DNA of 64,000 nucleotides from positions 23,831 to 87,830 of the forward strand of contig JBHLLU010000013.1 in the NCBI GenBank assembly GCA_048938895.1, read 5' to 3'. Each line of letters begins with the position of its first letter. Positions within the stretch are counted from its first letter, which is position 1. The translations under genes were made by a program, and so were the position numbers. The notes under the pieces were generated by a model. It saw only the letters and a program-made list of their open reading frames with translations. It was not told the DNA's origin and did no database searches. Below are positions 23,791 to 30,763 of the stretch, in pieces. The stretch comes from Promethearchaeota archaeon (GTDB lineage Archaea; Asgardarchaeota; Lokiarchaeia; Sigyniarchaeales; SOKP01).

Positions 23791-24348
23791 TTAATCATAC
23801 TCAAGAGAAAAAGTTTCTTCAATCCATTTTTCGATATCATCTTTGGACTTAGATATTGGTTGTGCTCCTTTGGATGGATCTCTATACCTTTCTTTTTCAA
23901 TTTCTTTAGAGATGTCTTTGAATAAATTAATATCCCCATTTTTAACGTGAATTTCAACTACAGTCTTAAAAGCAATTGGCCTTTGAAAACCCATATGGAC
24001 ATACATTGAATCTATAAAATCTTTTGCAAGAAGCAATTTTCCAGTGAAGAAAGGTTTTAGGTTTAAGTTCTTATATTTATATTTGAATAAATCACCTTCT
24101 TTCATAGGTTCAATGTCATTGATTTTTGGGGGATCATCAACATTTACACGCATCTCATCGAGGACTAGTTGATCCTCTGAAATAATATATTTCATAACAT
24201 AACCTCTCCAACAAGCAGTACAATTAAAATAAGGGGTAATACCGAAGTCTTCTGGTGAGAATAAACCTTCACCTTTTAATCCAATTAGAGAGAAAATTTC
24301 ATTATTTAATTTAAATTCATCTGGCATTTGGGCTGTTATTATTATCAC
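23791..24348 (-). CDS. Hypothetical protein with CTACWRGY motif
   Basis: 185 aa ORF; TACWRGY and YVHMGF motifs. Confidence 0.75.
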   Translation of the reverse strand: MIIITAQMPDEFKLNNEIFSLIGLKGEGLFSPEDFGITPYFNCTACWRGYVMKYIISEDQLVLDEMRVNVDDPPKINDIEPMKEGDLFKYKYKNLNLKPFFTGKLLLAKDFIDSMYVHMGFQRPIAFKTVVEIHVKNGDINLFKDISKEIEKERYRDPSKGAQPISKSKDDIEKWIEETFSLEYD

Positions 24349-24349
24349 C

Positions 24350-25603
24350 TTAAATTTTTAAAATTATACTCAATAATATCGGGAACTTTTCTTCTGAACC
24401 CCACACAACGTATATTTTATCATTAATTGGAACCGCAACATGTCGGGCAGCTACGATCCAATCTGTCCCAATATTATTCGCTGTTGCCGTACCCTCCTTA
24501 AATTTAAAATACATAACCATTCCTAGATAATTTTGAACTTTTGTATCTTCTATTCTAATAGCTTCTAGATCTGGGATTGTATACTCATTTATATCAAGAT
24601 CAGGTTGTATTGCTTCTCTTATTTTTTCAGAAGATAACTGTAATGCAGCACGAATAATGACTTCTTCTTTTACTTCTCTATCATATTCAAAAAGTATAAG
24701 ACCACAGTCTTTTTCAACTCCAGTGATACCTAAAGTATTGAAATCGAAAGCCTTCTGACTATATATTTTTAAGTCCTTATTAATCTTTGAGATTTTAATC
24801 CATCCATTTTCGAGATCTTCACCCATAACATATCGAAAACTCTTTAAAATTCTTAATTCCTCTTCTTTTGAACTAATAACCTCATCCATAATATTATTTA
24901 AAGGTTGTGCTACGAAGATTTGAGCACCTTTAGGGGCATCTAAAACCATATCAACCCAATTTTTCTTTACAAGACGATCCATTATTCTATATATTGTTGT
25001 CCTTTTTATATCTAATTCTTTATTCAAATTTCCAACTCTATCCCCTTTCTCTCCCTTTTTTAGTAACCCTAAATAGACTTGTGCTTCATCAAAACTCAAA
25101 CCAACTTTCAACAAACCTAGTTGTTGTAGTATCTCAGTATCATTAAGAATGATTCTAGGTGATGCCCATTTCAAATCTTCAACTTTCCCTAATTCTTTAT
25201 CTAAATCCATATAAGGCTTTTTAGAACTTAATTTACTCAGAATTTTAGATGCTTCTGTAAACCCTGATAGTAAATTTCCATCAGAAGCAATTTTACACAC
25301 AATTTTCCTTTCATCATCTTTAAACCCTACTATCCCTCCTACATATCGAGATCCTTTTAAAGTAATTGCTATAAATTTTTCAGTAGTATTTTGAATAATC
25401 ACACATTTTAAACCAGATACTGTAATATTTTCTGATTCTCCTGAATCCCAGATGAAATTAATCTGATCAATATCTTGACTAATGTCCCAATTTGTACTAT
25501 ATATAATATTTTTTTCGCCTTCTATAATGGCTACTGAAATAATTTTAGATTCTGATTCAGTTAAATTCTCAATATCAGGTAAAATTTTTTCCATAAGAAT
25601 CAA
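24350..25603 (-). CDS. Profilin-like domain fused to TrmB-type HTH regulator
   Basis: N-term VAIIEG..IIYSTNWDIS..ITVSGLKCVIIQNTTEKFIA (Asgard profilin pattern); middle GLSFDEAQVYLGLL..IKRTTIYRIMDRLVKKNWV (TrmB HTH). Confidence 0.75.
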   Translation of the reverse strand: MILMEKILPDIENLTESESKIISVAIIEGEKNIIYSTNWDISQDIDQINFIWDSGESENITVSGLKCVIIQNTTEKFIAITLKGSRYVGGIVGFKDDERKIVCKIASDGNLLSGFTEASKILSKLSSKKPYMDLDKELGKVEDLKWASPRIILNDTEILQQLGLLKVGLSFDEAQVYLGLLKKGEKGDRVGNLNKELDIKRTTIYRIMDRLVKKNWVDMVLDAPKGAQIFVAQPLNNIMDEVISSKEEELRILKSFRYVMGEDLENGWIKISKINKDLKIYSQKAFDFNTLGITGVEKDCGLILFEYDREVKEEVIIRAALQLSSEKIREAIQPDLDINEYTIPDLEAIRIEDTKVQNYLGMVMYFKFKEGTATANNIGTDWIVAARHVAVPINDKIYVVWGSEEKFPILLSIILKI

Positions 25604-25633
25604 ACAACCAATAGTTAATAAAAATAAAAATTA

Positions 25634-25846
25634 TTATTTTTCATTTTCCCTAAATTTCTTTTTTAATTCCTCTAATACTTTATTGAAATAGCTTGAATTT
25701 TTTGTTTCCTGAATGTTTGTGAAGTAAGTCGGCATAATTACTTTTTCTGATTCTTTTTTTATTGCTTCATCTGCCCAAAAAATATCCTCATCGAGAAAAA
25801 TACATGGTATTCCATCAATCATAGTTATTTTGATCATTTTAATCAT
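25634..25846 (-). CDS. Small hypothetical protein in actin operon
   Basis: 70 aa ORF filling the gap on the same strand. Confidence 0.55.
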   Translation of the reverse strand: MIKMIKITMIDGIPCIFLDEDIFWADEAIKKESEKVIMPTYFTNIQETKNSSYFNKVLEELKKKFRENEK

Positions 25847-25864
25847 TTTTTTTGTAATAATTAT

Positions 25865-27022
25865 TTAAAAACATCTATGAATCACTTGGGGACCTAATTC
25901 CTTATAATCTCTACGTGTTATCCACATCCGATAAAATGACTTTAGAGAACTTAAGATTGAGCCCCCAATCCAGACAGAATACATTCGTTCTGGTGGTGCG
26001 ATTATTTTTACATCTATGGAGTCTGGTATCTGCTCTTTTATCTCTCTAGTTAATCTTTCTTTCACACCAGGAAACATTGTGGAACCTCCGGAAAGCACTA
26101 TATTACTATATAAATCGCGACGAAGATCCATGTCACATTCGGATATTGCTCCCACAATTGCATCATCCAAAGGCAAAAGTTCTTTTCCTAATACAGAAGG
26201 ATTGAAGAAACTTTCAGGAGCCAAAAATCTTTCAATACCTATTTTTATGGTCTCTCCATCGGGTAGCATGTAACTCTTTTCCATACCAGTCACTCGTTTT
26301 GAAAGTAAGATTTCTTTTTCGGGATCTAAAGCCACATAACACAATTTTTCTTTTATTTCCCTAACTACTTCCTTTTCCGAAGAGGATATAAACGAAAATC
26401 CATTTTGTCTTAGAAGTCTCTGTAAATAAATGGTAACGTCTCTCCCTGCAAGATCTATTCTTTCAATCGCGTGATTTAAAGCAAATCCTTCATAAATTGG
26501 AACAATGTGAGAAACACCATCCCCAATATCTATTACGCAACCAGTTGTTCTGCCAGAAGCATATAAAGATAATACCGCTTGCGTTGCCACATATAAAGCA
26601 GGAACATTAAAAGTCTCAAACATTATCTCGGCCATTTTCTCCCGATTTGATCTAGGATTAAGTGGAGCTTCTGTTAATAGAACAGGATGTTCGGAAGGAT
26701 CGATTCTTAAATCAGTATAAAAAGTATAATGCAATATGCGTTCCATCGCAGGCCAATCATCGACTATACCATGCTCAATAGGAAACTGTAAATTCATGAT
26801 ACCTTTCATTTCTATCGCTTCACTACCTATATACCATTCACGTGAATAATCCTTGACATCAGGCATAATATTACCATACTTAGGTTTGCCAATTACAGTT
26901 GGAAACACAGATCGTGGTTGATCTTCACCTCCAAATCCGTTTTTTGAGATTCCTGTGCCACTATCTATCACAATAGCTTTGTTTGTTAAAAAATCCCCAT
27001 TGACTGAAATTTTATCAAACAC
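25865..27022 (-). CDS. Actin homolog (Asgard actin)
   Basis: VIDSGTG, FPIEHGIV, HPVLLTEAPLNP, QAVLSLYASGRTTG, DIGDGVSH, LSGGSTMFPG, YSVWIGGSIL, terminal IHRCF. Start likely GTG 27022 or ATT 27010, since ATG 27067 abuts the TATA box. Confidence 0.97.
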   Translation of the reverse strand: MFDKISVNGDFLTNKAIVIDSGTGISKNGFGGEDQPRSVFPTVIGKPKYGNIMPDVKDYSREWYIGSEAIEMKGIMNLQFPIEHGIVDDWPAMERILHYTFYTDLRIDPSEHPVLLTEAPLNPRSNREKMAEIMFETFNVPALYVATQAVLSLYASGRTTGCVIDIGDGVSHIVPIYEGFALNHAIERIDLAGRDVTIYLQRLLRQNGFSFISSSEKEVVREIKEKLCYVALDPEKEILLSKRVTGMEKSYMLPDGETIKIGIERFLAPESFFNPSVLGKELLPLDDAIVGAISECDMDLRRDLYSNIVLSGGSTMFPGVKERLTREIKEQIPDSIDVKIIAPPERMYSVWIGGSILSSLKSFYRMWITRRDYKELGPQVIHRCF

Positions 27023-27070
27023 CTCGTTTTTCTTTTTTAAAGTTTGATAGAATACAAATAGCAACATTCA

Positions 27071-27100
27071 TATTTAAACTTTGTCACGCTGTGGTGACAA
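27071..27100 (-). promoter_or_regulatory. Actin promoter: TATA box plus upstream 7-6-7 palindrome
   Basis: TTTAAATA on minus strand (27071-27078) preceded by TTGTCAC-N6-GTGACAA (27081-27100). Confidence 0.6.
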
Positions 27101-28069: not shown

Positions 28070-28489
28070 TTAACTACATTCCTCACATTCATAATAAAGA
28101 TCAATACGTTGAGCTTTAGGCTTAACTCCTGATTCAGAAACAATAGTATTCCAAAGCTCTTTAACTTTCTCAGTTTTAAAATCATGGATTTTTCCACATT
28201 TTGTACAGACCATATTGATATGAAGTTCCATATCTGGATCATATCTTGAACTACCTTCATTGAACCCAAGTTCTTGGATTAAGCCTATTTCTTTTAAAAG
28301 ATGTATGGTTTTATATATAGTTCCTAAACTTATAGTTGGATAGTCTTTTCTCAACCGTTGATATATTTGGTCTGCTGAAGGATGATCTCTTCGTGATAAT
28401 ATAAACTTGCATATTGCTAAACGTTGAGTGGTTACCTTGTATCCCCTTTCTTTAAAAATGTGTATTAATTCTTGATTATCCATTAGCAA
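28070..28489 (-). CDS. Fur/PerR-family regulator
   Basis: TTQRLAI, HPSAD, SLGTIYKT, HINMVCTKCG, CEEC; downstream of katG. Confidence 0.92.
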   Translation of the reverse strand: MLMDNQELIHIFKERGYKVTTQRLAICKFILSRRDHPSADQIYQRLRKDYPTISLGTIYKTIHLLKEIGLIQELGFNEGSSRYDPDMELHINMVCTKCGKIHDFKTEKVKELWNTIVSESGVKPKAQRIDLYYECEECS

Positions 28490-28534
28490 TCAATAAAACC
28501 TTTAATAAAATATAAAAAAAAAATAGAAATTTAA

Positions 28535-30763
<2,229 letters not shown>

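Follow-up and report, generated by a model that had tools for sequence, protein, structure and literature searches.

Is the coupling between the pool of actin monomers and gene expression older than the nucleus? In animals, monomeric actin controls actin genes through MRTF-A and SRF, and the dynamic cytoskeleton of Asgard archaea, built from lokiactin, also includes profilins and gelsolins. The question would become testable with a locus of a Promethearchaeota archaeon (GCA_048938895.1, contig JBHLLU010000013.1, positions 23,831-87,830; this whole stretch of 64,000 nucleotides (nt) is called the window here, and all positions are window positions). On the minus strand it carries, head to tail, an actin open reading frame (ORF), a 70-residue (aa) ORF named orf70, a 417-aa ORF encoding a fusion of a profilin-like domain with a TrmB-type DNA-binding domain, and a 185-aa ORF named orf185, separated by 18, 30 and 1 base pairs (bp).

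The original prediction had read the fusion as an actin-sensing transcription factor within "the actin operon". The same-strand arrangement with gaps of 18 and 30 bp that it described is borne out by the ORF coordinates, and the interpretation as a whole is partly supported by the results given here. We directly observed the domain homologies of the fusion, the synteny of its gene, and the uniqueness, conservation and position of a palindrome at the promoter of the linked actin. We consider it likely, from the sequences compared, that the fusion binds this palindrome and controls an accessory actin gene. A feedback of the actin pool on this promoter through the profilin domain is possible, and we propose it tentatively.

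The fusion gene is linked to an actin gene in one Lokiarchaeial family

We scored 8,000 candidates for homology to the fusion (E ≤ 1e-3) and obtained 153 homologues; the 120 listed span 318-474 aa, and the named ones among those are from Asgard archaea. A full-length fusion was present in 44 of the 135 genomes of one uncultured Lokiarchaeial family, within which its distribution is patchy, and a piece at a contig end was found in one further genome (G250). A sample of 265 other Asgard genomes gave no full-length fusion, and only partial matches to paralogues were observed there.

Synteny was scanned with one genome per species, which gave 49 loci, 45 of them with a full-length fusion. In 43 of the 43 loci that could be assessed, the fusion is directly preceded by an actin gene of the same strand, with gaps of 45-623 nt; the two remaining loci end at a contig edge within 770 nt. 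The proximity of the fusion to actin genes, which had been proposed as a check across Lokiarchaeia, was therefore seen wherever it could be scored. The wording "the actin operon" needs narrowing: the same-strand linkage holds, but the actin is an accessory paralogue, as described below, and the cassette is limited to one family.

The public labels of six of the genomes (those of loci L002, L010, L017, L019, L027 and L029) name Hod-, Hermod-, Odin- and Thorarchaeota. Some of these phylum labels are probably wrong, since the full-length fusion is limited to one family.

A unique palindrome marks the promoter of the linked actin

Upstream of the linked actin, positions 27100-27071 read TTGTCAC-CACAGC-GTGACAA, then AG, and then the TATA-box-like sequence TTTAAATA. 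The core of this palindrome, TGTCAC-N6-GTGACA, has its sole match in the window at this position (chance expectation 0.03), and with up to one mismatch the palindrome occurs only once in the 4.65-Mb genome. Of 44 upstream regions, one from the window and 43 from the related loci, 30 have a loose form, TCAC-N4-8-GTGA. Among the remaining 14, three have no upstream DNA and 11 carry variants, with a GTGACA or GTCACA half-site beside the TATA box; a palindrome or variant is hence present at the promoter position in all 41 assessable loci.

Across the loci the arms are conserved and the 6-nt spacer is variable. In one clade (L017-L021, L029 and L042) both arms are changed symmetrically, giving TTGTCGC-N6-GCGACAA, and a GTGACAA half-site (GTCACAA in L017) is kept beside the TATA box. 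We also compared the operator type with the residues of the wing of the DNA-binding domain: the clade with GTCGC arms has a PTGTT wing, but L024 has the same wing with a standard site, and the correspondence was discarded. The palindrome or half-site lies 2-6 nt from the TATA box in the related loci, and 2-4 nt in all but L008. Most loci have one palindrome; extra half-sites were observed only in L024, L036, L039 and L041.

The position is specific to the linked actin. In the 642,577 bases of the 49 loci, all 32 matches (≤1 mismatch, spacer 5-7) fall 82-225 nt before the start of a linked actin, whereas three control patterns gave 0, 1 and 1 matches. The exact site occurs in 31 of the 135 family genomes, once per genome, and a reversed control in none; 28 of the 31 sites closely precede the linked actin and share a contig with the fusion. 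The other three are in genomes without a detected fusion (G152, G212 and G235). In G152 the operator and TATA arrangement faces a contig end 183 nt away, so that this exception is probably a broken assembly; those in G212 and G235 are unexplained. Neither the palindrome nor a GTGACAA half-site was found within 330 nt upstream of 21 canonical lokiactins.

The available portion of a published account (PMC4158304) gives the motif of TrmBL1/Tgr as TATCAC-N5-GTGATA, and describes TrmB-family regulators as acting from sites beside the TFB-recognition element (BRE) and TATA box, with activation from sites upstream of these elements and repression from sites downstream. In the linked-actin promoter the proximal arm overlaps the BRE position, and therefore activation and repression are not distinguished. 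A site of this kind, with arms that are conserved, a spacer that is free to vary and a constant distance to the TATA box, is what a dimeric regulator would be expected to have. The role as a transcription factor is thus much better founded than at first, owing to this unique and conserved TrmB-type palindrome beside the linked-actin TATA box, with the fusion standing as its candidate binder.

In loci L001-L046 the distances from operator to start codon fall into three classes, about 82-89, 127-139 and 182-225 nt. The longest of these imply a 5' leader well over 100 nt in some lineages.

The linked actin as an accessory lokiactin paralogue

The linked actin matches Pfam Actin with E 8e-126, and its best solved relative is "HC1 actin" (9wc4, 5.5e-174). 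We searched the 135 family genomes with it and observed a match at E ≤ 1e-150 in 115. Nearly all of these have an almost invariant canonical actin, scoring about 734 bits and 82% identical to the window actin, which starts with ATG and begins MAEEESFLNAKALVVDNGTG. In the fusion-bearing genomes the linked actin is additional to this canonical lokiactin; that of the genome studied here is on a different contig, cut by the contig end, and is 79% identical to the window actin. In a quick maximum-likelihood tree, one branch (SH-aLRT 99) parts 20 canonical from 40 linked actins; nine of the canonical sequences are identical, and the linked actins are on longer branches. Judging from these sequences, the linked actin is a faster-evolving accessory paralogue and not the main lokiactin.

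Seven diagnostic positions distinguish linked from canonical actins, at the N-terminus, at residues 37, 42 and 45 of the D-loop and at residue 114. They do not cluster on the face that we take to be profilin-binding, and no conclusion about a profilin interface was drawn from them.

The actin most likely starts at the ATT codon 27008-27010, and not at ATG 27067, which is not conserved and comes 4 nt after the TATA-like box (27071-27078). The aligned start codon of the 40 linked actins is ATT in 20 (the window, L001-L012, L014-L016, L022, L023, L027 and L031), ATG in 16 and TTG in 4, and many of the ATT loci have no canonical in-frame start upstream.

In the portions available of two accounts, the cultured Lokiarchaeum ossiferum has one lokiactin, three actin-related protein (ARP)-like proteins and three profilins, and a regulator of the profilin-TrmB type is not mentioned (PMC9834061, PMC13716822). 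Some Lokiarchaeia, on the evidence of the cassette, carry a second lokiactin that is probably under separate control.

The N-terminal domain belongs to the profilin branch

Residues 5-88 of the fusion match the Loki profilin chains 5yed_A (2.8e-5) and 5zzb_A (2.8e-4), both of 136 aa, in a phmmer search of PDB. A profile of 22 N-terminal domains found 5yed (5.1e-15), 5zzb (4.7e-14), 5zza_P (6e-12) and 7pbh, entitled "Profilin" (3.2e-8); apart from one weak and apparently spurious match (0.0059), all its PDB matches are profilins. The alignment with 5zza_P, a 121-aa chain that we take to be an Odin profilin, is near full length (17-122 against 16-119). An alignment of 21 stand-alone Asgard profilins itself finds the same PDB entries at 1e-31 to 1e-40, and also eukaryotic Profilin-2.

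We compared the N-terminal domains with the two candidate families by hhalign. Against the stand-alone Asgard profilins the probability was 99.8% (E 2.5e-30, 119 columns), compared with 23.5%, and a 12-residue gap in the central helix, against Roadblock/LC7 proteins of the same genome (11 of its 19 matches were aligned). Because of this difference, we place the N-terminal domain, at the level of sequence, in the profilin branch and not in the Roadblock branch; the generic roadblock or sensor fold that the original prediction had named among its refuting conditions is not what the comparison returned. According to the parts available of PMC10933270, extra strands that contact actin replace in profilins the second half of the central helix of Roadblock. 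The alignment of the N-terminal domains with profilins crosses the region of these strands, its sole gap being the six-residue Loki loop. For the homologous profilins, among them the Loki profilin structure 5zzb, actin binding has been shown by others (PMC8410842, available portion).

The domain is thus homologous over its full length to the Asgard profilins 5yed, 5yee, 5zzb, 5zza_P and 7pbh, and close in length to 5zza_P. Like them it has an NW(D/N)(I/V)S helix start and a G.KY..(I/L/V) strand; unlike them it is fused to a DNA-binding protein and has a GFKDEERK hairpin and a PY..LGK linker of its own, and it is without the six-residue loop of the Loki profilins. At the position of this loop some fusions have insertions that are charged and coiled-coil-like (L023 7992-8528; P0055, P0058, P0077 and P0161). 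Pfam Profilin (PF00235) gives no match to the window fusion and weak matches to three of 48 family members (best E 0.0035). This criterion is a weak one for Asgard proteins, because the canonical Loki-type profilin of the same genome is likewise below its threshold (21.8 bits against 25).

Five profilin-like genes are present in the genome. Among their products, a 210-aa protein (L051 1477-2109; 37% identity, E 1e-20) is closest to the N-terminal domain, with the canonical profilin at E 3.8e-7. This paralogue of about 205 aa, present in nearly all family genomes, has the PY...LG linker motif in common with the fusion and a conserved C-terminal helical tail. We infer that the fusion may have arisen by joining the front of a protein of this type to a regulator consisting of a TrmB part and the C-terminal domain. 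The Asgard profilin-type domain family as a whole has 132 representatives among 1.84 billion proteins.

A TrmB-type DNA-binding domain is followed by a conserved C-terminal domain

Pfam TrmB (PF01978) matches residues 165-223 of the fusion with 39.8 bits (cut-off 25.6), and all 48 aligned homologues give this match. The whole length is conserved among the 48 (mean column identity 54%), with invariant residues in the linker (Y128, G136 and W143) and in the recognition helix (K197, R198, I201 and Y202). Positions 3-115 of NCBIfam TrmBL1 align with residues 155-269 (E 5.8e-7), at only 28.8 bits against a cut-off of 650. The helix after the wing aligns with the dimerisation region of TrmBL1 and is a candidate coiled-coil dimerisation helix.

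The C-terminal 148 residues (267-414) are strongly conserved. They have no significant match in Pfam or NCBIfam (the best, SATase_N at E 0.19 and nqrE/PRK11132 at E ~0.1, are far below the cut-offs) and no relative in PDB or Atlas; for none of the 48 members does Pfam match this region at E ≤ 0.01, and a sugar-binding effector domain as in TrmB was not detected. In seven loci a profilin-less paralogue, with the TrmB part and the same C-terminal domain, is encoded 2-7 kb downstream, while a second copy of this module was not found in the genome of the window. The domain order first described, with a profilin, a TrmB winged helix-turn-helix (wHTH), a following helix and a C-terminal domain without relatives, therefore stands, except that the coiled coil is a candidate only.

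In having a PF01978 winged helix followed by a helix, and a candidate TCAC...GTGA palindrome beside the BRE and TATA box, the fusion resembles TrmBL1/Tgr of Thermococcales. It differs in that its wHTH is internal and not N-terminal and that the spacer of the candidate site is 6 nt and not 5. Unlike in TrmB regulators, its C-terminal domain matches no known effector-binding domain, and the linked target is actin and not sugar metabolism.

A proposed model for the cassette

Taken together, the operator, the TATA box, the accessory lokiactin, sometimes orf70, and the profilin-TrmB regulator form, in our reading, a self-contained and probably autoregulated cassette. The fusion is the simplest choice of controller, because the cassette supplies a site, an actin and a single DNA-binding protein together, and is present or absent as a unit. 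In the model, the regulator would dimerise through the helix behind its winged helix, and the dimer would bind TTGTCAC-N6-GTGACAA with the proximal arm over the BRE position, immediately ahead of the TATA box. From there it would set the transcription of the accessory actin and, via read-through, also its own. The profilin domain, directly ahead of the DNA-binding domain, would bind actin monomers, whether of the paralogue or of the canonical lokiactin. A 42-kDa monomer held there, next to the winged helix, could change DNA binding or the recruitment of transcription factor B (TFB) and the TATA-binding protein (TBP), and the free actin pool would in this way close a feedback loop. Binding of the site by the fusion, activation or repression from it, and binding of actin by the profilin domain are three separate steps that we infer, each from the sequences. 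The complete model including actin sensing is tentative, and we would give it somewhat less than an even chance of being right.

The logic proposed is like that of MRTF/SRF, by analogy, in that a module binding actin monomers would be coupled to the transcription of actin genes. There is no sequence kinship between the two, the fusion is one polypeptide and not a cofactor with a DNA-binding partner, and the archaeon has no nucleus into which a cofactor could shuttle. No RPEL family is among the Pfam matches at E ≤ 1.

To our knowledge, a one-component TrmB-type regulator with such a sensor domain and such a target, as the fusion would be, is unprecedented. The literature searched, which left aside supplements and the 2018 and 2023 papers on Asgard profilins, does not describe the fusion, the actin paralogue or the palindrome, and contains nothing on the control of Asgard actin genes. 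If the model is true, actin-responsive transcription would have in the fusion its first candidate outside eukaryotes. With a site of 20 bp, and with parts that are all small and look soluble, the cassette lends itself to straightforward gel-shift and actin-binding assays.

Alternative explanations

A number of observations weigh against actin sensing, and several of them speak for a second explanation: the fusion would be a dedicated regulator of the accessory-actin promoter whose profilin-like domain has a task other than actin sensing. This task could be oligomerisation or the binding of, for example, a GTPase, a lipid head group or a proline-rich protein; or else the C-terminal domain would be the ligand sensor, as in TrmB. 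The operator evidence serves this explanation just as well. GFKDEERK, the best-conserved stretch of the N-terminal domain, is not present in canonical profilins, and the domain as a whole is closer to the paralogue of about 205 aa than to the canonical profilin. Some fusions have insertions of 50-100 aa between the central helix and the actin-binding strands. The profilin-like domain is also fused C-terminally to Ras-family GTPases (4 proteins), beside leucine-rich repeats (LRR; 1 protein), and as the last domain of multi-wHTH proteins that have a proline-rich linker (P0152, P0159, P0190, P0195, P0206, P0224 and P0237). As these fusions are mostly not beside actin genes, the domain may be a general interaction module. 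Also, the C-terminal domain, highly conserved and present in the profilin-less TrmB paralogue, could be the actual sensor.

Among the other fusions, P0224 and P0237 represent a second architecture in which winged helices have been joined independently to an Asgard profilin-type domain, in the opposite domain order (the profilin domain is C-terminal). It is present in six of seven genomes of the sister families f5-f7, which are of the same class, and in none of 134 genomes of family f1. We asked whether it would independently bear out the linkage to actin; it gave no support, since only one of five loci has an actin gene within about 6 kb.

Two points speak against such a regulator without actin sensing: its N-terminal domain is homologous, over the full length, to profilins for which actin binding has been shown (PMC8410842, available portion), and the actin linkage at all assessable loci would have to be explained by the target alone and not by the sensor. 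We consider this second explanation rather unlikely, although it deserves to be kept in view beside the actin-sensing model.

A third explanation separates the fusion from the palindrome: another factor would bind the site, and the fusion would regulate elsewhere or be a DNA-tethered profilin. The genome has 14 PF01978 matches, eight or nine of them over the cut-off (the ninth passes only when summed with in-frame neighbours), and another wHTH protein could bind the palindrome. Because the fusion always comes with both the operator and the actin, co-occurrence does not by itself identify it as the binder, and exact palindromes occur in the three fusion-less genomes mentioned above. Moreover, an oligo-T run of about T7-T13 follows the stop codon of the gene preceding the fusion in most of the 33 related loci inspected (L001-L042). 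It resembles an archaeal terminator and suggests a separate transcription unit; it may end most transcripts, in which case co-transcription is not assured, and it would hold the level of the regulator far below that of actin. However, the only such site of the genome is within a cassette that is gained or lost as a unit, a factor encoded outside would need the same patchy distribution, and the G152 operator, at its contig end, is probably part of a broken assembly. This explanation therefore appears improbable to us.

Type II partition loci of the ParMRC kind consist of a DNA site overlapping the promoter, a gene for an actin-fold ATPase and a gene for a DNA-binding adaptor, and the cassette has the same gene order and a site overlapping its promoter. 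By this likeness the palindrome could be a centromere-like site and the fusion an adaptor that would hold DNA by its wHTH and the accessory actin, at the barbed end or as monomers, by its profilin domain; an operator-bound dimer would show two profilin domains on DNA and tie the actin to one chromosomal site. The single site per genome, the few loci with two or three repeated half-sites and the faster evolution of the accessory actin would agree with such a parC-parM-parR-like device, and, if real, it would be a DNA-positioning or DNA-anchored nucleation device made of a true actin and mediated by profilin, in the archaeal relatives of eukaryotes. We think it very improbable, since most loci have one palindrome and no multi-repeat centromere array, transcription control is suggested by the fixed distance to the TATA box, which is 2-4 nt at every locus except one, the actin is of the lokiactin type and about 79-82% identical to the cytoskeletal one, the adaptor bears a profilin, and the context is chromosomal, with ordinary neighbours (glyoxalase, ABC transporters and, read by eye, a Fur-like protein and KatG) and no plasmid or mobile-element genes seen in 20-31 kb of the window.

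Layout of the locus and neighbouring genes

The features of the locus are listed in Table 1. For the fusion, the ATG at 25594 is the more likely start, as in the database copy P0001.

Table 1. Coordinates of the features of the actin and profilin-TrmB locus (window positions)
Feature	Position	Strand	Basis or remark
Candidate operator, perfect palindrome TTGTCAC-N6-GTGACAA	27081..27100	-	Sequence read; sole match in window and genome
TATA-box-like TTTAAATA	27071..27078	-	2 nt downstream of palindrome; putative function, from archaeal consensus (PMC4158304, available portion)
Shine-Dalgarno-like GAGGTG	27020..27025	-	9 nt ahead of actin ATT start
Accessory lokiactin paralogue	25865..27010	-	381 aa from ATT; ORF open from ATG 27067
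orf70, conserved small protein	25634..25846	-	tblastn and alignment; family not assigned
T-rich run T5-A-T5-A	25619..25630	-	After orf70 stop; putative terminator
Profilin-TrmB fusion gene	24350..25594	-	414 aa from ATG; alternative TTG start 25603
Profilin-like domain, residues 1-126	25217..25594	-	PDB profile matches and hhalign
Conserved linker, residues 127-161	25112..25216	-	PY..D..LGK...KW.TP.(I/V)L
TrmB-type wHTH, residues 162-220	24935..25111	-	Pfam PF01978
Helix after wing, candidate coiled-coil dimerisation helix, residues 221-266	24797..24934	-	NCBIfam TrmBL1 alignment
C-terminal domain, residues 267-414	24353..24796	-	Conserved; without match in Pfam, NCBIfam, PDB and Atlas
orf185, conserved Asgard hypothetical protein	23791..24327	-	Directly downstream of fusion; ORF 23791-24348

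A tblastn search places orf70 between actin and fusion in 14 of 45 loci, and six more have it by inspection of their ORFs. Its alignment has the conserved motifs IDGIPCI and L.ELKKKF, and on this evidence orf70 is a real, conserved small protein. It has no significant match in Pfam or NCBIfam, the only one, DUF7061 (E 0.046), being below the cut-off.

Downstream, orf185 adjoins the fusion in 13 of 44 assessable loci. It has 273 homologues, with named members labelled Thor-, Hod-, Hermod- and Sigynarchaeota, and belongs to no Pfam family. Its Atlas model is a confident one, with a predicted template-modelling score (pTM) of 0.83, and the look-alikes are unnamed bacterial proteins.

On the other side of the actin, window positions 28070-30739 (minus strand) encode two proteins that we read, without a library scan, as Fur-like (139 aa) and as a catalase-peroxidase (KatG-like; a 734-aa ORF). 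The G+C content of this segment is 0.39-0.43, compared with about 0.30 around it, and it may be foreign DNA.

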